A DNA stretch of 64,000 nucleotides from Candidatus Magasanikiibacteriota bacterium (GTDB lineage Bacteria > Patescibacteriota > Patescibacteriia > Magasanikbacterales > UBA922): NCBI GenBank assembly GCA_014729395.1, contig WJJZ01000010.1, forward strand, positions 156,544 to 220,543, written 5' to 3'. Positions 3,116-55,293 of the stretch are shown here, in pieces. A program made the position numbers and the translations under genes. Every line of letters begins with the position of its first letter. The stretch's first letter is position 1. A model generated the notes under the pieces. That model was given only the letters and a program-made list of their open reading frames with translations, was not told the DNA's origin and did not search any database.

Positions 3116-3203
3116 GTAAGGGATTTTTGTGATAAGCACGCCTAGCTCTCGCCTTCGTCCTCGCTTCGCTCGGACTATGGCGAGGCAGGCAGCTGGTTTT
3201 AAA

Positions 3204-3280
3204 GCACGCCTAGCTCAGCTGGTTAGAGCGCCTCGTTTACACCGAGGAGGTCAGGGGTTCGACTCCCTTGGCGTGCACCA
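3204..3280 (+). tRNA. tRNA-Val (anticodon TAC), CCA encoded
   Basis: Cloverleaf folded by hand: acceptor GCACGCC/GGCGTGC, D arm GCTC-AGCTGGTTA-GAGC, anticodon stem CCTCG/CGAGG with loop TTTACAC, T arm AGGGG-TTCGACT-CCCTT, discriminator A + CCA. Confidence 0.85.
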
Positions 3281-8700: not shown

Positions 8701-11284
8701 TATCTTTTTCAACATCAAACCGGTATTTATGTTCACCGCTGGCGCCGGTATTACCACTAAACTCGCCTACTTTATTCTCATAATAACTATATGAATATCT
8801 TTTACGTGTCACTTTATTTATAAAATCATAATCAGTACCGATTTCTTGTCTTTTATAACCAACTTCATATATTTCCGCTCTAAAATCAACATTGGCTCTC
8901 ACCGGACCCCGATAATCATAATAAATATTACCATCCCCACTGTTAATCTTATCAAAATCAAAGTAATTAAACTTGGTTGTTACTTCTGCTTTACCATCCT
9001 CCACCTTATTCGCTTTAACACTACCCAAAGTATCAAAATTGGCCACAATCACCATGGTACGACCGCTTATTTCTCCCAGTTCCGAATCTGCAGGATGAGC
9101 TTCTAAAGACTTATAAGACACACTAGCACAAGACCACTTATGTGTGCAGCTATGCTCTGATGTATTTATTACAGTCTTGACCCTGCCTTGAGAATCAGTA
9201 GTAACCTGTTGTCCATCAACCGATAAATCCAAATATGGTACTGGCGTCCCTTCAAAAAAATTAGTCTCAGCATCCAAATTAATATCTTCTCCGGCATAAA
9301 CAGCATACTTTTCCGGTGTAAGCTCTATTTGGTATTCGGGCTTAATATAATCTTGAACATTAATAAAATCCCTGGTCACGAATTCACCATCTACAAATAA
9401 CTCGACATGATAATATCCACTTTTAAGATCTTCCAAATTAAATTCCGCGGAAAAAGCACCGTTTGGATCCAATTCAATACTTACCTCTTCCAAAACAGCT
9501 GTTTCATGGTAATAATTAAAATAATCATTTTTTATAAGCTGAAGTTTTATGTCCTTATTTTTTAAATCATTACCATCACGATCTTGTAAAAACCCCCATA
9601 AATGGACTTTGTCATCCGGTTTGTAAACAGGTCTATCTTTTTCCAAAATTGTCCAATAGTCACCACCAAGGTTTCGATCGTATTTACTCAATTTAAACAA
9701 TGCTTTCTCCGATCCGTCGTCTATTACGATCTCATCGCTATCGGCATTAATCTTTTCAGTATCAAAAACCACCAGGCCATTGCTATTTGATGTGTATTCG
9801 TCTCCACTCCCAACCAGCCTAACTTTGGCAGCATTTATGGATGTATCGCTTTGTGCGTTCTTAAGCCAAACCAAAGACTGGTCTTCCAGTATATTTATAT
9901 AGGCGGCAATATTGGTAACTTGAAAAAAAGTCTGTAAAGTTCTATTGTCCGGTGTTTGCAGTTCCAGAGCATAAAAACCAACATCCAGGCTATCAGGTAA
10001 AACCAGATAATCTCTATTACGTGATTCGGTTGTTTTTAGATCAATATCCATGACTTGAACTGCATTACCAAGGTCAATCTTGGTATATCGATTCTGATAA
10101 CTCGCCCATGAAGGTATGGCACTTTTTTGACTAACCAATCTTTGATAGTTTTCCAAATTACCTAAATTATATACCGATACTTTATACTCAGCTTGGGTAC
10201 CATGCTCATATACCGGGAAAAAAGGAGTTACATCCGGAGAAAACTCACTAAGCTCTTTTCTAAAATAAATTTTTCGATAATTAGAAGCCGAGCCAGCAGC
10301 ATTGGTCTCAAATTGAAATTGAAAATCTTCTTCCAGTGATTCATCGGAATTTTCAAGGGGTAAATTTTTATCTACAGTTATAGTATAAATGGTACCGCTT
10401 TGTAATGTTTCATTTGGTACTAAAACCAAAGTCCGACCATGCTTTTCAAATCTATGGCTGATATTAGGTTCAATTGTGACATATTTATAATAATCATAAT
10501 AATCTTCATGACTAAAATAAATTTCTATACCGGTATTTAGCGGTACTTCGTCAACTTTGTCGCGCGGTAAACTGCCATAAATTTTAAACTGATCTTTGAC
10601 TTGGAAAGCCCAAGAATAGTCGCGCTCAACTGTTAAACCCTCGGAATTAACATATGCTGAATCAATTTTTAAATTATAAACAGTCCTGGTTTGAAGAGGA
10701 CTTTTTGGTGTAACTTTAAATTCTTGATTACTTATTACTTCAAAATTAAAATCAACCTCCGGAGTTAATTTAATATTTTCTTTTAACAAATTACTGTCTT
10801 CTATTTCGTCCTTGCTTTTTATTACAAAAGCGGTGCTGCTATCCACACCCAGACTGTCTGACTCAGTGGCTTCAACCGTAAAATTATCCTGGGCATAGGC
10901 CGGATTTATCAATAATTTTGAAAAGGGATCAAATAAACCGCCCGGCTGGCTTGGTTGCCAAATATAGATACTCGATATTGTGACCAATACCACCAGACCA
11001 ACAATCGCGGCCGGTACCAATCGCTTTGGCCTAAATAGGGTTTTTAGGGAAGCAATATTCAAACTTGGTTTTTTCATAATAATATTTTTTTTGCGCCGTT
11101 TCTCAATGATGTCTCGCTTTAGCGAATTTTTAAACTCTTGAGAAGCAGGCTGTGAATTAAAAATCCCCCGCTTGAGTTTACCCTCTGCTTCCTTTAACGA
11201 CGCAAACTTGGATTCATTACGTTTTTTATTGGATTTTTTATTATCCAAAAAATTCATTTTTTTATTTTTTGCCTTATTTTTCAT
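5714..11284 (-). CDS. Giant (1856 aa) single-pass membrane protein: Lys-rich cytoplasmic N-terminus, TM helix, Ig-like (Big_5/SbsA-type) and macroglobulin-like beta domains, embedded Hint/mini-intein-like domain, alpha-2-macroglobulin (A2M) domain, alpha-helical TED-like region without thioester, C-terminal receptor-binding-like domain
   Basis: A2M hallmark FKLPDNITSWR; TED-like LSLYGLAALDEP region but no CxEQ; C-terminal MG8-like region; start codon overlaps the stop of the upstream ECF sigma gene (ATGAAAAATAA overlap). Confidence 0.8.
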   Translation of the reverse strand: MKNKAKNKKMNFLDNKKSNKKRNESKFASLKEAEGKLKRGIFNSQPASQEFKNSLKRDIIEKRRKKNIIMKKPSLNIASLKTLFRPKRLVPAAIVGLVVLVTISSIYIWQPSQPGGLFDPFSKLLINPAYAQDNFTVEATESDSLGVDSSTAFVIKSKDEIEDSNLLKENIKLTPEVDFNFEVISNQEFKVTPKSPLQTRTVYNLKIDSAYVNSEGLTVERDYSWAFQVKDQFKIYGSLPRDKVDEVPLNTGIEIYFSHEDYYDYYKYVTIEPNISHRFEKHGRTLVLVPNETLQSGTIYTITVDKNLPLENSDESLEEDFQFQFETNAAGSASNYRKIYFRKELSEFSPDVTPFFPVYEHGTQAEYKVSVYNLGNLENYQRLVSQKSAIPSWASYQNRYTKIDLGNAVQVMDIDLKTTESRNRDYLVLPDSLDVGFYALELQTPDNRTLQTFFQVTNIAAYINILEDQSLVWLKNAQSDTSINAAKVRLVGSGDEYTSNSNGLVVFDTEKINADSDEIVIDDGSEKALFKLSKYDRNLGGDYWTILEKDRPVYKPDDKVHLWGFLQDRDGNDLKNKDIKLQLIKNDYFNYYHETAVLEEVSIELDPNGAFSAEFNLEDLKSGYYHVELFVDGEFVTRDFINVQDYIKPEYQIELTPEKYAVYAGEDINLDAETNFFEGTPVPYLDLSVDGQQVTTDSQGRVKTVINTSEHSCTHKWSCASVSYKSLEAHPADSELGEISGRTMVIVANFDTLGSVKANKVEDGKAEVTTKFNYFDFDKINSGDGNIYYDYRGPVRANVDFRAEIYEVGYKRQEIGTDYDFINKVTRKRYSYSYYENKVGEFSGNTGASGEHKYRFDVEKDKNYRVKVFAKDNHGRAFYQTAYFYNFQSRYDYDFYELEIKDKQETEDRDLNEYSIGETVKVEMKNNGKELSGSDKNDFLFLQMQRGLQDYQVSQNSEYGFKFTEEDIPNLRLKGVWYDGNTFHETYSNYWFGGGGNGSVIRVAKSDRELDIEVVSEKQTYQPGEDVNLYISVKDKFGRGVRSSFNINLVDEAVYKIREDYSNTLSELYAGVPSGELFSYSSHETPLFDQSGAEGGAGCFLSGTKITMADGSLKNIEDIVPGDEILTYDSPATRKLTKAKVVETFQHVVPGYIIINDSIEVTPEHRFYINDGWQMIGEAKVGDFMLDADGNYILIENIEKVKKTVEVFNFHVADYHTYIANGIYVHNEKGGARVDFKDTAMFFSGQTASNGKGEISFKLPDNITSWRVNAKAVTKSLLAGQSTGNINVSKPVFVLGTFADEYLASDKPIVKLRAYGSSLNRGDKVDFSMTIDDLGIDEERSSYAFVPEYFDLGNLKKGVYPLYHSVKTNGYSDAVIRPISVIDSRLKKEFTDFYELTQDIKLVQIPEDRFKMIFSDESQGKFYNRLTRLAWTWGDRIDQKLSRVLAGRFKQVYFDDEMTGNGEEIDKNLFQMSNGGIALLSYADSDFELSAKIAALAPQFFDRNALANYFYGFYNQTSLTEDEAALSLYGLAALDEPVLYPVQKMAQKEDLSVKNRLYIALAAEELGDTELARDMLDQLLSDYGEEFESMVRIKPSDNKDEILAATSLAANLAAGVDNDFHERLWNYVQKNYTREILVNLEELLYIKQRLTHLKPTPVSFVVTVDGKRIEKELEKGRTFTLSLTPEQYETFKVEEIDGDVGVTVSYFAAPNQYAEEPGRVTYVSVEKKYFVDGQETTTFKENDVVEVRLYPSINPNSVDGAYTVTDILPSGLSIIKRPYARGDIDYDSCIIYPYRSGYNIIKTNYYKGSKCGYRKYYARVNSLGEFTVEPAVIQSVNTEDIINYSEPGTIVIENVE
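7604..7990 (-). other. Hint / bacterial intein-like (BIL) mini-intein domain embedded in the A2M-like protein (aa 1099-1227)
   Basis: Block A CFLSGTKITMADG, block B TPEHRF (TxxH), block F/G VFNFHVADYHTYIANGIYVHN ending His-Asn; +1 residue is Glu (not Cys/Ser/Thr); no endonuclease domain. Confidence 0.75.
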
Positions 11285-18877: not shown

Positions 18878-20071
18878 ATGAATAAAAAAATTTTAATAAC
18901 AGCAATAGTTATAATCATTATCACTGCCGTACTGATTGTAATTTTTAATAAGCAAATCAGTAAATTAATTTTTAACCCGACCGAAACCAAGCTTCCAAGC
19001 GGGATAAAATATAGTGATGTTAATGATATAAGATTAAAAGACACTGAGGATGACTCTACCATGTCGGCTATTGAAGTCGTCGCTGAAAATCTGGAAATTC
19101 CTTGGGAAATAATTTTTCTGCCGGACGATACAATGTTGGTGACAGAACGGCCGGGACGACTGTTGCGAATTTACCCCAACAGACGAGAAGGCATAAATAT
19201 TTCCGGAGTGGAGCATCGTGGTGAAGGTGGTTTACTTGGTGCGGCACTACATCCTGATTTTGAAAAAAATAATCTACTCTATCTTTATCTAACAAGCAAA
19301 AACTCAGACGGCTTGATAAATCGTGTGGAAAGATATCACTTTGATGCGGAAAACAATAATTTATCTGACAAAAAAATAATTATAAATAATATACCCGGTG
19401 CCAGTTATCATGATGGTGGGCGCATAGCCTTTGGTAGTGATAACAAATTATATGTCACCACCGGTGACGCCGGTGATTCAAAATTGGCACAAAACATAAA
19501 TAGCTTGGCCGGAAAAATACTCCGTCTTAATGACGACGGCTCTGTACCCGGCGATAATCCTTTTGATAATGAAATCTGGACATATGGGCATCGTAATCCG
19601 CAAGGACTGGCTTGGGACAAAGATAACAATCTTTGGTCGACCGAACACGGCCCTTCCGGAGTCGGGTCGGGTTTTGATGAAATTAATCTGATTCAAAAAG
19701 GTAAAAATTACGGCTGGCCCGTAATTCAGGGAGGCGAAATTCAAGAAAACATGCAAACTCCCATAATTCAATCCGGAGCTGATGACACATGGGCACCGGC
19801 CGGCATGACCATAGTTGACAACAAACTGTTTTTTACCGGTTTGCGCGGCGAAGCACTTTATTCGGCTATTATTACGGATGACAAAAAACTATACACATTG
19901 CAAACCAATTTTAGAGAAGATTTTGGTCGCTTGCGCGTAGTGCGGACCGGTCCTGACGGCTGGCTGTATATAGCCACCAGCAATCGCGACGGTCGTGGCT
20001 CTATTCGACCTCAAGATGATAAAATTATAAAAATAAATCCCAATTTGTTCGGAACACATCAAAATAACTGA
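18878..20071 (+). CDS. PQQ-dependent soluble sugar (aldose/sorbosone) dehydrogenase family protein, YliI-like
   Basis: HDGGRIAFGSDNKLYVTTGDAG, GHRNPQGLAWD, KGKNYGWP motifs of the GSDH beta-propeller family; signal/TM at N-terminus; start placed at MNKKILI. Confidence 0.8.
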   Translation: MNKKILITAIVIIIITAVLIVIFNKQISKLIFNPTETKLPSGIKYSDVNDIRLKDTEDDSTMSAIEVVAENLEIPWEIIFLPDDTMLVTERPGRLLRIYPNRREGINISGVEHRGEGGLLGAALHPDFEKNNLLYLYLTSKNSDGLINRVERYHFDAENNNLSDKKIIINNIPGASYHDGGRIAFGSDNKLYVTTGDAGDSKLAQNINSLAGKILRLNDDGSVPGDNPFDNEIWTYGHRNPQGLAWDKDNNLWSTEHGPSGVGSGFDEINLIQKGKNYGWPVIQGGEIQENMQTPIIQSGADDTWAPAGMTIVDNKLFFTGLRGEALYSAIITDDKKLYTLQTNFREDFGRLRVVRTGPDGWLYIATSNRDGRGSIRPQDDKIIKINPNLFGTHQNN

Positions 20072-20077
20072 ATTTTT

Positions 20078-20239
20078 ATGCCTTTAAAAAAATCAACAAA
20101 AAACGGCAAGCCCTGTTACAAATGGGGTGATTCGGGCAAATGCTATCCCTACACGGCTGGAAATAAATCCAGCCGAGAGAGAGCAAAAAATAAAGCGAAG
20201 CATCAAGGCAGGGCGATTGAGATGAGAAAACATGCTTAG
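20078..20239 (+). CDS. Small basic Cys-containing protein (53 aa), hypothetical
   Basis: ORF MPLKKSTKNGKPCYKWGDSGKCYPYTAGNKSSRERAKNKAKHQGRAIEMRKHA, starting 7 nt after the dehydrogenase stop; below the ORF-track length cut-off. Confidence 0.3.
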   Translation: MPLKKSTKNGKPCYKWGDSGKCYPYTAGNKSSRERAKNKAKHQGRAIEMRKHA

Positions 20240-20397
20240 ATATAAAAAATGCCGGTCCAGACGGTATTTTTTTAATATCACTTTTTTTATTTAAAAAATA
20301 TGGATCAGCGAAAAAACCAATTCTTGACAATTCAATAAAAATAATATAATATTAAACATCAAAAAAAACGTTCATTCAACCACAACTAGGAGGTGCT

Positions 20398-20922
20398 ATG
20401 GAGAGTGGAAAAGATGAATTCACAAAAAAACTTGAACTATTGGAAGATCCGGATGGGGTCTCTATAAAATTTACCCAAATTACCCCACCGTTGACTAAAA
20501 AAGTGGATGTACTTCAATTTTTGGACTATCTGTGCAATGAAGATTTCATAACGAGAGATGAGTTTCTCGCCTATCAAAATCGCATCATGCTGATGGACAA
20601 TCTTAGCGACGAAAGTTTGATTGTTCCGCGGATAGACATTTGCATGTGTCGTGAGCATCTGAACATTGTAACCAGCTACGGTAGTCTGGAAGAAATTTCC
20701 TCATTTACCGAGTTGAAACAAATATTAAAAGAATTACAGGAAATGCATCATATCACGGAGGTGGATGCAAACCGTCTTCTACGACAGGCAAAAAAGGAAG
20801 CTATCCACATGCCGAACACGGAAATAATTCCTGAAGAGGCATTCGACATACAAGGCATACTCAGACTTCTGGAAGCAATCCAGGAAATCGCCGACGGCGA
20901 CGGAAATCAAAAGCCGAACTGA
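20398..20922 (+). CDS. Hypothetical protein
   Basis: Strong SD (AGGAGG) 6 nt upstream of the ATG; 174 aa; no recognisable motif. Confidence 0.5.
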   Translation: MESGKDEFTKKLELLEDPDGVSIKFTQITPPLTKKVDVLQFLDYLCNEDFITRDEFLAYQNRIMLMDNLSDESLIVPRIDICMCREHLNIVTSYGSLEEISSFTELKQILKELQEMHHITEVDANRLLRQAKKEAIHMPNTEIIPEEAFDIQGILRLLEAIQEIADGDGNQKPN

Positions 20923-20936
20923 AATATATAGCAAAA

Positions 20937-20965
20937 AGCACCCGTTGGGCGGAGTGCTTTTTTTA
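20937..20965 (+). terminator. Rho-independent terminator
   Basis: AGCACCCGTTGGGCGGAGTGCT hairpin followed by T7. Confidence 0.55.
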
Positions 20966-20967
20966 TT

Positions 20968-21040
20968 TGCAGGCGCGGTAGGAATCGAACCCACGACAAG
21001 AGTTTTGGAGACTCCTGTGATACCACTTCACCACGCGCCC
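20968..21040 (-). tRNA. tRNA-Trp (anticodon CCA), G73 discriminator, CCA not encoded
   Basis: Hand fold: acceptor GGGCGCG/CGCGCCT, D arm GTGA-AGTGGTA-TCAC, anticodon stem GGAGT/ACTCT with loop CTCCAAA, T arm GTGGG-TTCGATT-CCTAC. Confidence 0.8.
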
Positions 21041-21043
21041 ATG

Positions 21044-21292
21044 TTATTTGTATTTTAATCTTTTCATTAAACCTGTGTAAGCCGAGCCATATTGTTTCAA
21101 TTTCTTTTCACGTTCTTTAGCTAATTCTTCAACAATATATGATTCATAATAAATTAATTCCAACGGCCGTCTATATTTGGTTGACTTAACTTTCCCATCT
21201 ATATGATTTTTTAACCTTAATCTCAGATTGGATGTAAAACCTATATAAAACTTACTATCTTTTTTACTTTTTAAAATATATACATAAAACAT
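21044..21292 (-). CDS. GIY-YIG nuclease family protein (small stand-alone GIY-YIG domain)
   Basis: YVYILKSKKDSKFYIGFTSNLRLRLKNH = canonical GIY-x10-YIG with the R and N; 82 aa. Confidence 0.85.
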   Translation of the reverse strand: MFYVYILKSKKDSKFYIGFTSNLRLRLKNHIDGKVKSTKYRRPLELIYYESYIVEELAKEREKKLKQYGSAYTGLMKRLKYK

Positions 21293-21303
21293 AATTATCT
21301 ATT

Positions 21304-21379
21304 GTGGCGGTAGGAATCGCCCCGCCCTTCGCGAAGGGCGGGGTTGGAGACTCCTGTGATACCACTTCACCACGCGCCC
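21304..21379 (-). pseudogene. tRNA-Trp-derived pseudo-tRNA: exact copy of nt 1-37 of tRNA-Trp, a 24-nt perfect GC palindrome, and a copy of the tRNA 3' part (CGATTCCTACCGC)
   Basis: 36-nt identity to tRNA-Trp up to the anticodon loop, then CCCCGCCCTTCGCGAAGGGCGGGG, then the T-loop/acceptor 3' fragment; the acceptor stem can no longer pair. Confidence 0.7.
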
Positions 21380-21491
21380 ATATAGCTATCAGTTGACAGA
21401 CTTCAGCTAATACTACCAAAATAAAAGCTGAAGTCCGAAGTCTAATAACTGATTGCTAATTTTACACCATTTCTCCCAAAAAATCAACCCA

Positions 21492-22322
21492 TTAAACCAT
21501 TGTTTCCGGTTTATTTTTATTTGTTTTTTTAGGCTTTGTTTTTTTTACAAAAACAGCCGCTAGCATAACGAACAAAAGTAATACGGTGTAAGTGTAAATA
21601 TAATAATAACCGGCAATATCCAACACCAACTTTAAAAGTGTCGGCAGCGTAATACCATACATGCCCAAAGTATATATCTCTTGATATTTATAATTCTTAT
21701 GACCAAACTGAGCAGCAATCCAAACTATTAGAGATATAATTAGCAGATATACCAATTTGCCAATCACCAAGCCTACAAATACAGACAACAAAATAATAAA
21801 AAAAGCAAAATAAGGCAGACCATCGGTAAAACGACCAACCCAATAAACCATATCGTCCTTATCAAATTCAACACCATCTATATCTGAAAAAAATTGCACC
21901 CTGGTCTGACCCTGCTTACTATCATGCATCATAACTTTATTCCGTGTAATCAAAACACCGCTTTCTCTCATCGGATCAATAAAATCCTCTATCACCAGCT
22001 TTTCGTCTGTTTTTGTATCAACCACCAATAAAAAATCCTCATCACCTTCTCGACTCTCCAAAACAAATGGCTGCTCCAACTTGTCTACATTCAACCGGCC
22101 GTCTTCAATTTGTAAACTAAAATCCGGCACCTGATTAATAACTCCTTCATGTAAACCTTTAACCGCCTGAGGTATTTTCCAAGCAAAAAAAACAGAATAA
22201 AGCAAAGATACAAACAGAACAAAAAAAATAAAATAAGCACCGGCTTTGCCCATATCTTTGCGTCTTTCTCTTATCCACGCAAAATTAAATAAACTGTTTA
22301 CGAAAGCTTTTAGGTAATACAT
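21492..22322 (-). CDS. Hypothetical polytopic membrane protein
   Basis: 276 aa, TM helices at N-terminus and C-terminal half. Confidence 0.45.
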   Translation of the reverse strand: MYYLKAFVNSLFNFAWIRERRKDMGKAGAYFIFFVLFVSLLYSVFFAWKIPQAVKGLHEGVINQVPDFSLQIEDGRLNVDKLEQPFVLESREGDEDFLLVVDTKTDEKLVIEDFIDPMRESGVLITRNKVMMHDSKQGQTRVQFFSDIDGVEFDKDDMVYWVGRFTDGLPYFAFFIILLSVFVGLVIGKLVYLLIISLIVWIAAQFGHKNYKYQEIYTLGMYGITLPTLLKLVLDIAGYYYIYTYTVLLLFVMLAAVFVKKTKPKKTNKNKPETMV

Positions 22323-22344
22323 ATTGAAAAATTTTGAATTCTAA

Positions 22345-22366
22345 AACGGTCCTCAGAGGACCGTTC
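22345..22366. terminator. Perfect 10-bp stem hairpin (AACGGTCCTC-A-GAGGACCGTT) flanked by T-rich tracts on both strands
   Basis: Direct reading; intergenic. Confidence 0.35.
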
Positions 22367-22627
22367 TATTTTACCATTATTTGGTTTCTTTATGCAAAGT
22401 ATGTTTCTGGCAGTGCTTGCAAAATTTTTTTATTTCCAAGCGATTTTTCAAAGTCTTTTTATTCTTGCGAGAATAATAATTTATTTGTTTGCATTCAGTA
22501 CATTCCATTTTTATCATGTTATCTTGTGACATATATAAAATCCAAAATCATAAATCATAAATCTAAAATCAACTTAATTTTAGATGGTGAGAATATATTA
22601 CATAATTTAGCTTATTTTGTCAAGAAG

Positions 22628-30145: not shown

Positions 30146-30283
30146 ATGACTTCGTTAAAACTACGTCATACGCAGCACGACTTCGTTAAAACTACGTCAC
30201 CACTCGTAATTTTCGTCATGCAACTGCTTGCCCGCCGAAGTCCGGAGCTTGTCGAGGAACGAAGGCGGGAGCTATGTCGGCAT
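30146..30283 (-). repeat. Structured tRNA-Thr leader: two tandem copies of a 22-nt upstream motif (GTAGTTTTAACGAAGTC core), a conserved about 48-nt CGCC...GGCG stem element, and a 15-nt repeat of the tRNA 5' end (ATGCCGACATAGCTC)
   Basis: Direct sequence comparison with the tRNA-Val leader (3135-3203) and the tRNA-Thr(TGT) upstream region. Confidence 0.6.
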
Positions 30284-44507: not shown

Positions 44508-44705
44508 CGAATATACGCCTGCCTGCCGGCAGGCAGGGATAATTCAGATTTACGGATCGTTTAGTCTATAAACCAATAAAATATTTACTATCAACTGTCT
44601 GTATTAATAGAAGTCCTTTATTTGTTAATGATACACTGGACTAACACCAATCTATCCTAAAATCCGCACCTGCCTGCCGGCAGGCAGGTTATCCGTATAT
44701 CCGTA
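44508..44705. repeat. MITE-like element bounded by two identical 20-nt perfect palindromes CCTGCCTGCCGGCAGGCAGG (44518-44537, 44669-44688) with about 10-nt inverted flanks (CGAATATACG / CGTATATCCG)
   Basis: Direct reading; GC-rich palindromes in an AT-rich intergenic region between mreB and the GT4 gene. Confidence 0.6.
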
Positions 44706-55042: not shown

Positions 55043-55114
55043 GGCCCGTTCGTCTAGTGGTTAGGACTCCAGGTTTTCATCCTGGCAACAGGGGTTCGAT
55101 TCCCCTACGGGCTG
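55043..55114 (+). tRNA. tRNA-Glu (anticodon TTC)
   Basis: Acceptor GGCCCGT/ACGGGCT, D arm GTCT-AGTGGTTAGGAC, anticodon stem CCAGG/CCTGG with loop TTTTCAT, T arm AGGGG-TTCGATT-CCCCT, discriminator G. Confidence 0.8.
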
Positions 55115-55293
55115 CAAACGCAAAAGTGTCAACTACAGTTGGTACTTTTGTATTTGTGAATACCCTTGAGGGAATCGAACTGGGGATGGTAAGGGGCGTA
55201 GCCCCTTACTTGTGGAGGAAAGCCTACGAAAACCCGAAGGTTTTCGTGGGAGCGACTGAAAGGAGCGAGTGAGATTTCCCCTACGGGCTGCAA
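55115..55293 (+). other. Highly structured about 160-nt insert followed by a 19-nt repeat of the tRNA-Glu 3' end (GATTTCCCCTACGGGCTGCA)
   Basis: Three clean hairpins (CAAAAGT...ACTTTTG; GGGGCGTAGCCCC; CGAAAACCCGAAGGTTTTCG) and a duplicated tRNA 3' terminus. Confidence 0.55.

Follow-up and report, generated by a model that had tools for sequence, protein, structure and literature searches.

A tRNA-Trp gene apparently colonised by a small GIY-YIG nuclease cassette in a Patescibacteria genome

How does a nuclease gene come to stand with a broken copy of an essential tRNA gene on one side and an intact copy on the other? The question is raised by a stretch of 64,000 nucleotides (nt) from Candidatus Magasanikiibacteriota bacterium (GCA_014729395.1, contig WJJZ01000010.1, positions 156,544 to 220,543), hereafter the window, whose minus strand carries a broken tRNA-Trp copy, an open reading frame (ORF) for an 82-amino-acid (aa) GIY-YIG protein, an intact tRNA-Trp(CCA) and a terminator, in that order. 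An earlier note on this DNA had read the arrangement as the footprint of a mobile, homing-endonuclease-like cassette that targets a tRNA gene and regenerates it, or of an intron-like insertion later resolved by duplication. The comparisons reported here favour, with a probability of roughly 0.6, colonisation of tRNA-Trp by a mobile GIY-YIG mini-cassette whose persistence in an essential tRNA depends on the retained intact copy. The window is AT-rich (36% G+C) and holds this one GIY-YIG ORF only; its protein is 100% identical to one encoded by a Candidatus Magasanikbacteria metagenome-assembled genome, which places the organism among the Patescibacteria. The parts of the locus are as follows.

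21459 to 21487, minus strand: promoter-like site (TTGATT, 17-nt spacer, TAAAAT), a weak match from a consensus scan only, about 78 nt upstream of the pseudo-tRNA
21344 to 21381, minus strand: 5' segment of the broken copy, 38 nt, from a repeat search at 100% identity
21320 to 21343, no strand assigned: perfect 24-nt solo palindrome CCCCGCCCTTCGCGAAGGGCGGGG, a member of the CCCCGYCNYTCGCGARNGRCGGGG family
21307 to 21319, minus strand: 3' segment of the broken copy, 13 nt, CGATTCCTACCGC, from an exact-repeat search
21044 to 21292, minus strand: 82-aa GIY-YIG ORF, Pfam PF01541
20969 to 21040, minus strand: intact tRNA-Trp(CCA), called by ARAGORN and by the Rfam tRNA model (61.8 bits, E 2e-12)
20933 to 20962, minus strand: intrinsic-terminator-like hairpin with a T-run, from a terminator scan, closing the pseudo-tRNA, GIY-YIG and tRNA-Trp unit

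The order and coordinates reported for the pseudo-tRNA, the GIY-YIG gene and the intact tRNA were confirmed by the sequence itself, ARAGORN, Pfam and Rfam. The 5' segment is an exact direct repeat of 21005–21042 and comprises 2 nt upstream of the tRNA and its linear nt 1–36 (nt −2 to 36). It stops at the A just 3' of the anticodon, which is canonical position 37; the "nt 1–37" of the earlier note holds in canonical numbering and overshoots by one in a linear count. The perfect palindrome described there is present, and it occupies the place of 17 tRNA nt (AACTCTTGTCGTGGGTT) that run from the 3' anticodon strand through the 5' T-stem strand. The further copy of the T-loop and acceptor segment is a 13-nt exact repeat of 20975–20987, corresponding to linear nt 54–66 (T-loop, 3' T-stem strand and start of the 3' acceptor strand), beyond which the broken copy diverges from tRNA-Trp. 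Because the duplication ends at about nt 66 and not at the position of the palindrome, an insertion at the anticodon loop is an incomplete description of this locus. The cassette spans about 340 bp, with the 5' part of the tRNA as its long direct repeat, and the stop codon of the nuclease gene lies 3 nt ahead of the first nucleotide of the intact tRNA. Since a promoter-like site precedes the pseudo-tRNA and a terminator-like hairpin trails the intact tRNA, the pseudo-tRNA, the GIY-YIG ORF and tRNA-Trp appear to form a single transcription unit, and the promoter-like site is a candidate for the native tRNA-Trp promoter, which would now drive the whole unit.

The pseudo-copy drew no tRNA call from ARAGORN, nor from Rfam at E ≤ 1, and its predicted fold, which is stable (z = −3.1), keeps the D arm and forms one long arm capped by the palindrome. 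As the palindrome also replaces part of the tRNA, the pseudo-copy was ruled out as an intron-containing or alternative tRNA; a functional alternative tRNA was an outcome that the earlier note had named as speaking against its reading. A group I intron in the anticodon loop was rejected as well, there being neither a ribozyme nor space for one. Beyond the 249-nt ORF, just a few tens of nt lie between the pseudo-copy and the complete tRNA, and an Rfam search at E ≤ 1 across 20000–22500 returned the intact tRNA alone and no intron, so the idea of an intron-like insertion has to be dropped.

The 82-aa ORF matched PF01541 with an E-value of 8.8e-16 (58.4 bits against a cut-off of 22.6), the sole Pfam domain above its cut-off. 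Residues of the GIY-YIG catalytic motif (Y5, Y16, G18, R26, H30, E50, R61 and E62) are invariant in 26 homologues, which indicates that the gene is under selection; the alignment of these homologues contains no invariant Asn. The only sequence match in the PDB was 1ZG2, a UPF0213 protein (E 2.5e-5). The stand-alone Slx1-like cluster described in PMC1564403 is a minimal GIY-YIG domain, marked by a length of about 80–110 aa, the lack of accessory domains, likeness to 1ZG2 or 1YWL and the lack of the conserved C-terminal Asn of the UvrC/homing lineage, and on these sequence marks the 82-aa protein belongs to the bacterial stand-alone Slx1-like/UPF0213 cluster. It is not a homing endonuclease of the classical I-TevI, Seg or Mob type: the protein is a catalytic domain only, with no linked C-terminal DNA-binding domain, and it scored 19.4 bits with the NCBIfam group I intron endonuclease model, whose cut-off is 56.

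A protein scan with one genome per species yielded 79 homologous loci; L numbers denote comparison loci throughout. A tRNA gene lies within 400 nt in 38 of the 79 loci, whereas the tRNA density in their outer parts predicts 6.4. Among the 43 nearby tRNAs, 42 share the strand of the GIY-YIG gene and 31 are immediately downstream of it. The closest homologues (L001–L005, L007–L010, L012, L014, L033 and L035) almost all adjoin tRNA-Trp, and rpmG is found in the upstream neighbourhood in the window, L001, L004, L008, L010 and L033. Upstream duplicates of the tRNA 5' part are exact over 39 nt in L001 and 37 nt in L007, and duplicates of this kind with GC hairpins in the D or anticodon loop accompany tRNAs for Trp, Glu, His, Ser, Gln, Ala, Val and Arg in many genomes, in agreement with the footprint proposed earlier, in which a GIY-YIG cassette is associated with a tRNA gene of which an intact copy is left. 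The duplicates start anywhere from 13 nt upstream of the tRNA to nt 1 and end at nt 11–13 (Ala, Val, Arg), at nt 32–44 (Trp, Glu, His, Ser) or at about nt 64–68 (the window, L001, L035), and copies with an ORF have flanking duplications of 11 to about 70 nt. That the family, where it occurs at tRNAs, is always accompanied by an intact tRNA copy is well supported. The broken and intact tRNA-Trp sequences clearly differ in L118, L010, L009, L005 and L186, and duplication in situ is therefore insufficient by itself to explain them. Downstream of the GIY-YIG gene of L089, the intact tRNA-Trp is followed (at about 10200–10480) by two tandem identical pseudo-tRNA-Trp units of about 104 nt each, which have the type A junction defined below.

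Because the DUF1189 gene upstream of the window locus has no close homologue among 5.8 billion proteins, we sampled the rpmG loci of the nearest L33 relatives, chosen by L33 similarity only. In L211, L212 and L219–L224, tRNA-Trp follows rpmG by about 80–100 nt with no GIY-YIG gene between them, and in L213–L215 and L218 it follows another gene, likewise without GIY-YIG. The comparison with related tRNA-Trp loci suggested in the earlier note therefore revealed cassette-free rpmG–tRNA-Trp sites in the nearest relatives, and given these empty sites the arrangement is not the stable feature without them that the note had set as its counter-case. In L222 only, a 79-aa GIY-YIG gene with GC hairpins lies between tRNA-Tyr and rpmG, and L219, L220, L221 and L223 lack it while sharing the same L33 gene and flanks. 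Three changes in the tRNA-Tyr T-stem might have been taken for co-conversion by the L222 cassette; they were not used as evidence, the divergence of the nearby spacer being similar. All-against-all comparison revealed many pairs of loci that are alike over the cassette alone (about 260–400 bp), and one and the same 82-aa protein, P0007, was found in several flanking contexts.

Some neighbouring genes are recorded here as separate observations. A 23S_rRNA_IVP-family gene, of a family otherwise known from rRNA intervening sequences (IVSs), lies directly upstream of tRNA-Trp in L213–L215 and L218, which represent one lineage (e.g. L213, 4178–4639). P0007, the 82-aa GIY-YIG protein just mentioned, is present on at least 24 contigs without a tRNA and is bracketed by ACCCCGCACCTT...AAGGTGCGGGGT; its contexts L201–L210 share a segment of about 0.6 kb at 96–99% identity within several different flanks, with a second, convergent GIY-YIG gene of 110 aa about 170 nt from the P0007 gene. 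In some of them a bAvd/23S_rRNA_IVP gene and a 341-aa ORF adjoin, possibly as part of a diversity-generating retroelement.

Within the window, relic-like structures lie beside other tRNA genes.

3135 to 3203, plus strand: tRNA-Val relic, directly upstream of the intact tRNA-Val (3204–3280), with no nuclease gene
30146 to 30281, minus strand: tRNA-Thr(GGT) relic, upstream of the intact tRNA-Thr(GGT) (30145 to 30070)
55273 to 55291, plus strand: tRNA-Glu relic, a 3'-end copy of 16–19 nt, about 160 nt downstream of the intact tRNA-Glu (55043–55115)

In the tRNA-Val relic, copies of nt −1 to 13 and of nt 14–22 are separated by a hairpin element that is GC-rich and about 38 nt long (TCGCCTTCGTCCTCG...GGCGAGG). 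The tRNA-Thr relic combines a copy of nt 1–13 with a homologue of the tRNA-Val hairpin element and with a short tandem repeat (about 35 nt); in L222, the arms of the tRNA-Thr hairpin are tandemly expanded (TTCCGCCGC about four times, AAAGCTATGGCGGACAAG three times). The segment downstream of tRNA-Glu (55116–55291) contains, ahead of the 3' copy, GC hairpins such as that at 55189–55209 and an inverted fragment resembling a T arm (GGGAATCGAAC). Judged by these sequences, the relics at tRNA-Val, tRNA-Thr and tRNA-Glu fit a cycle of invasion, decay and loss.

The replacement hairpin and the precise breakpoint, both of which had been called unusual, turned out to be recurrent. The palindrome belongs to a conserved family of the form CCCCGYC..TCGCGA..GRCGGGG, with compensatory changes at the variable positions of CCCCGYCNYTCGCGARNGRCGGGG, and CCCCGYCNYTCGCGARNGRCGGGG-type palindromes sit within the pseudo-tRNA copies of the Trp-associated relatives. 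A metagenome scan by palindrome pattern found solo members on at least 120 contigs; among the matches listed, the window palindrome is the commonest variant (27 occurrences). Identical copies are also present in L001, L002, L089, L120, L122 and L186. Its breakpoint is one of several recurrent junction types. In type A, the anticodon plus A(A) is followed by the palindrome and then by the T-loop sequence CGATTC...; this junction occurs in the window, L001, L005, L089 (twice), L122 and L211, and in L160 for tRNA-Cys, the L211 fragment standing directly after an intact tRNA-Trp. Type B, found in L007, L008, L009, L014, L084, L099 and L118, reads TCTCCA, palindrome, TCCAAAACC; it adds 28 nt net to the anticodon loop and includes a direct duplication of 4 nt. 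Other palindromes lie in D loops (L004, L009) or in a T loop (L082), and L009 has one nested within another.

Inside the 64 kb of the window, the palindrome has no second match at up to 3 mismatches, and 100 shuffled sequences contained none either; being single-copy there, it was rejected as a genome-wide repetitive extragenic palindromic (REP) sequence of this organism. A different GC-rich palindrome, CCTGCCTGCCGGCAGGCAGG, occurs in the window in two copies 150 nt apart in an intergenic gap (44518–44537 and 44668–44689). Elsewhere, a solo palindrome lies at the extreme 5' end of tRNA-Tyr in L128 (12818–12924) and of tRNA-Cys in L163 (229–324), with direct repeats CAGG and CGTG, respectively; both tRNAs remain intact because the terminal G-run of the palindrome regenerates their first bases. 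In L094 (3026–3888), tRNA-Ile(TAT) lies between pseudo-copies that contain a variety of small hairpins, among them a TCGCGA-type palindrome immediately 5' of the anticodon, and no GIY-YIG gene was found near it.

The palindrome is also linked to the nuclease genes by sequence. Perfect inverted repeats of 10 nt or more lie tight against the start and stop codons in 39 of the 95 family ORFs, compared with 6 in a complement-only control. The arms match halves of solo palindromes (e.g. ACCCCCACACCAAA...TTTGGTGTGGGGGT; GCCCCTCACCTAAAAAGATT...; ACCCCGCCCTC...GAGGGCGGGGGT), as do arms such as ACCCCGCCCT. Protein clusters track arm sequence, palindrome variant (GCCC vs GTCG) and tRNA type, which argues that nuclease and palindrome are inherited as a unit or functionally matched. 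In 37 of 112 unique solo contexts, the palindromic symmetry continues for 3 bp or more past the core (1.8 expected), and in 27 for 5 bp or more (0.1 expected); a direct flank repeat of at least 4 nt is present in 13–15 contexts, against 0.4 expected, with most contexts lacking one. As both features exceed expectation, the 24-nt unit would seem to act partly as a tiny insertion and partly as the conserved tip of longer hairpins.

Several other accounts were set aside. Confinement to GIY-YIG neighbourhoods was ruled out, since of 121 metagenome loci seeded with the palindrome only 13 have the gene, in most cases no more than 300 nt away and beside tRNA-Trp. Residence of solo palindromes mainly within known structured RNAs was likewise rejected: Rfam searches of 20 loci placed them near rRNA operons (in the spacer or after 5S) and not inside annotated RNAs. 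Phages are not a likely vehicle, with one viral contig for the palindrome and two distant viral matches for the protein family.

GIY-YIG proteins have been reported in insertion sequences of rRNA genes in the candidate phyla radiation (CPR), where these insertions are not introns (Tsurumaki et al. 2024, PMC11270868); Brown et al. 2015, as cited there, had described GIY-YIG-encoding non-intron insertions in CPR rRNA genes. Most of the rRNA insertions lie at the top or base of a stem-loop, and the GIY-YIG proteins were judged to stand outside homing (PMC11270868). Rfam scans of our 79 homologous loci placed an arm-bounded ORF within the 23S rRNA gene in L034 and L057. The L034 ORF replaces the tip of a variable helix, the orthologous sequence in L057 is a short native hairpin and that in L140 is another expansion. 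In L058 (248–965), the RNase P RNA gene carries in an apical loop an insert of about 350 nt that is an arm-bounded GIY-YIG ORF (ACCCCGCCCTTTTT...AAAAAGGGCGGGGT); judged by the model positions, this loop is probably P12. The ORF lies 261 nt upstream of 23S rRNA in L006 and 149 nt past tmRNA in L059, and over half of the family, tRNA cases included, is in or beside stable-RNA genes. The window cassette lies at a tRNA and so is not itself an rRNA insertion, whereas its homologues in L034 and L057 are; by sequence, the window element is a relative of the CPR rRNA insertions in a different host gene.

The explanation that we favour combines these results as follows. The family, common in CPR/Patescibacteria, has a stand-alone Slx1-like GIY-YIG ORF of 80–90 aa together with CCCCG...TCGCGA...CGGGG arms, and its members reside in or beside stable-RNA genes: in tRNA loops, at 23S rRNA helix tips and in the probable P12 loop of RNase P RNA, where the paired arms could form a stem closing off the ORF. 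That the window locus belongs to such a recurrent, patchily distributed family, tied to stable-RNA genes and to the palindromes, is well supported. Helix tips of rRNA and RNase P RNA would tolerate the insert and a tRNA could not, which would explain why the cassette is seen at tRNAs only with a second copy; there, the broken palindrome-bearing copy is usually upstream and the intact copy directly after the nuclease gene. For the type A junction of the window, the most likely origin is a deletion that joined a palindrome in the anticodon loop to an identical one in the T loop. We infer that a break stimulated by the nuclease is repaired by gene conversion from a cassette-bearing copy, in a homing-like transfer for which conserved tRNA sequence may provide the homology arms, and it is this proposed use of tRNA sequence that would tie each nuclease lineage to one tRNA type. 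The patchy distribution of the family and the restriction of similarity to the cassette lend such a transfer indirect support. Cassettes would then degenerate and vanish, leaving partial tRNA duplicates with solo hairpins such as those at tRNA-Val, tRNA-Thr and tRNA-Glu in the window.

A number of observations weigh against this explanation. The intact tRNA beside the nuclease gene shares the anticodon arm of the broken copy and would itself be a target, a bare 82-aa catalytic domain has no obvious way to recognise an asymmetric tRNA gene, and the explanation does not account for a duplication that begins near the tRNA 5' end. The window ORF lacks flanking inverted arms; in their place are tRNA direct repeats and, upstream, a complete solo palindrome. 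Most solo palindromes stand without a GIY-YIG gene, a pseudo-tRNA with palindrome occurs without any such gene in L211, L094 and L160, and the DUF1189 neighbour, for which no close homologue was found, leaves no close relative for an exact-site comparison of filled and empty states. The tRNA-Thr arrangement is also present in the relatives L219 (2125–2202) and L222 (1811–1960); some pseudo-tRNA and hairpin structures are therefore old and stable. The main rival, which we regard as unlikely though a serious contender, is an element centred on the palindrome, comparable to REP sequences with their REP-associated tyrosine transposases (REP/RAYT) or to insertion sequences (IS) and miniature inverted-repeat transposable elements (MITEs), in which a GIY-YIG dimer or a structure-specific nuclease would cut the palindrome or its cruciform and not the tRNA gene. 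Arm-flanked ORFs would then be autonomous and 24-nt solos non-autonomous, mobilised in trans; stable-RNA stem-loops would offer both structural targets and tolerated sites, and tRNA duplicates the survivors of lethal hits. The arms around 39 of 95 ORFs and their homology to solo palindromes agree with it, as do the co-variation of palindrome variant with nuclease clade, the excess of flank duplications and of longer palindromes around solos, the net 28-nt insertions in tRNA loops and the hairpin nested in a hairpin in L009. A symmetric binder would also suit a perfect 24-bp palindrome, and eukaryotic Slx1 relatives are structure-specific nucleases, to go by titles in the reference list of PMC1564403. 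Against it stand the single occurrence of such a palindrome in 64 kb of this genome, far short of the copy numbers of REP-like elements, the distance of most solo copies from any GIY-YIG gene and the intact, uncut state of the window palindrome although it lies 27 nt from the nuclease gene. Cutting at the palindrome alone, moreover, explains neither the fidelity of nuclease clades to tRNA types nor the start of the duplication at the tRNA 5' end.

It is improbable that the locus is a stable, non-mobile arrangement, that is, an old tandem duplication of tRNA-Trp around a housekeeping Slx1-like gene, with a decayed upstream copy and an unrelated palindrome that is a generic CPR terminator or insertion. 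Stand-alone bacterial Slx1-like proteins are regarded as vertically inherited (PMC1564403), the pseudo-tRNA-Thr with its hairpin has been kept between the window genome and L219/L222, and solo palindromes stand in many unrelated contexts, some of them terminator-like. Such stability is difficult to square with the empty rpmG–tRNA-Trp sites in the nearest relatives and the cassette found in L222 and missing from L219, L220, L221 and L223, with the same architecture at eight or more tRNA types, in rRNA and in RNase P RNA, with the co-variation of arms, palindrome variant and nuclease, with the restriction of similarity between loci to the cassette, or with the two different tRNA-Trp sequences at some loci. 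We give a similarly low weight to a role at the RNA level, in which arms or palindrome and pseudo-tRNA would be processing signals and the GIY-YIG protein would act on RNA, for example as a maturase or an IVS-removing nuclease. Such a role would suit the ORFs inside stable-RNA genes, whose arms are able to form a closing stem, and the stable extended arm predicted for the pseudo-tRNA. The characterised roles of GIY-YIG enzymes, however, are on DNA, and the window locus, with its complete tRNA, has no need of splicing. A fusion of a prokaryotic Slx1-like domain to a TrmH-like tRNA methyltransferase is mentioned in PMC1564403 as hinting at a function on RNA; in other bacteria, RNase III already accounts for IVS removal (PMC11270868). 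A false duplication created by assembly or binning is scarcely credible: the genome is metagenome-assembled, but the same architecture recurs in dozens of independent assemblies from different projects, and the repeats are short with unique sequence between them.

Free-standing GIY-YIG homing endonucleases of phages, such as T4 SegB, encoded in a tRNA gene cluster, and I-TevI, are of the UvrC/homing lineage, measure about 200–250 aa and carry a DNA-binding domain at the C-terminus. They resemble the present system in having a GIY-YIG gene beside or within tRNA genes and in the presumed break-induced gene conversion with co-conversion; unlike them, the protein here is an 82-aa Slx1-like catalytic domain alone, and the phage systems are not known to have tRNA duplication or palindromes. 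Genomic islands and prophages that target tRNA genes likewise insert at a tRNA, produce a partial tRNA direct repeat and leave an intact tRNA, but they have an integrase and repeat the tRNA 3' end, whereas the cassette of about 340 bp repeats the 5' part and has no recombinase gene between the tRNA repeats of the window, where the GIY-YIG ORF is the only one. REP/RAYT systems and IS/MITE families have a single nuclease gene within inverted palindromic units that also occur alone, as do 39 of the 95 family members though not the window copy; the family differs in using a GIY-YIG nuclease and not a Y1/HUH or DDE enzyme, in its apparently low copy number (one in 64 kb) and in its strong tie to stable RNAs. 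The classical IVSs of 23S rRNA, which are removed by RNase III, are also insertions at helix tips whose complementary ends form a long stem (PMC11270868), but they are confined to rRNA, where fragmentation is tolerated, whereas the elements described here also occur at tRNAs and with gene duplication. The CPR rRNA insertions occur in the same organisms and likewise have a small GIY-YIG ORF, a stable-RNA host gene and no group I or II intron; in contrast, the window cassette lies at a tRNA and has a tRNA duplication and a palindrome. A term search of PMC11270868 found no mention of tRNA genes, tRNA duplication, palindromes, hairpins, inverted repeats or RNase P RNA, and our literature search, in which this was the only related paper, found no description of the combined tRNA, palindrome and duplication anatomy. 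The cassette may best be regarded as a variant of the CPR stable-RNA GIY-YIG insertion elements and of homing-like cassettes, with a realistic chance that it represents a distinct, palindrome-bounded class.

A broader proposal, which we put forward tentatively and would not yet bet on, is an unrecognised class of autonomous mini-elements of about 0.3 kb, each a bare GIY-YIG gene with cognate arms, that mobilise 24-nt solo palindromes in trans, specialise on the helix tips of stable RNAs, escape lethality at tRNAs by creating or importing a second copy and thereby drive the turnover and replacement of tRNA genes in CPR genomes. Elements of this class would rank with the smallest self-encoded mobile elements. 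Should the 24-bp palindrome or a DNA structure be what the 82-aa protein recognises, the protein would be a very small sequence- or structure-specific nuclease of possible practical use. If the favoured explanation is true, it would account for the partial tRNA duplicates and GC-rich palindromes at these loci and flag a source of tRNA mis-annotation, and the stand-alone Slx1-like/UPF0213 GIY-YIG proteins, a large family so far uncharacterised, would gain a function open to testing. The explanation would also revise the published view that the GIY-YIG ORFs of CPR rRNA insertions stand outside homing-like spread. CPR genomes are tiny and their tRNA and rRNA genes are mostly single-copy, and the locus would then show how essential RNA genes are invaded, replaced and repaired in such organisms.

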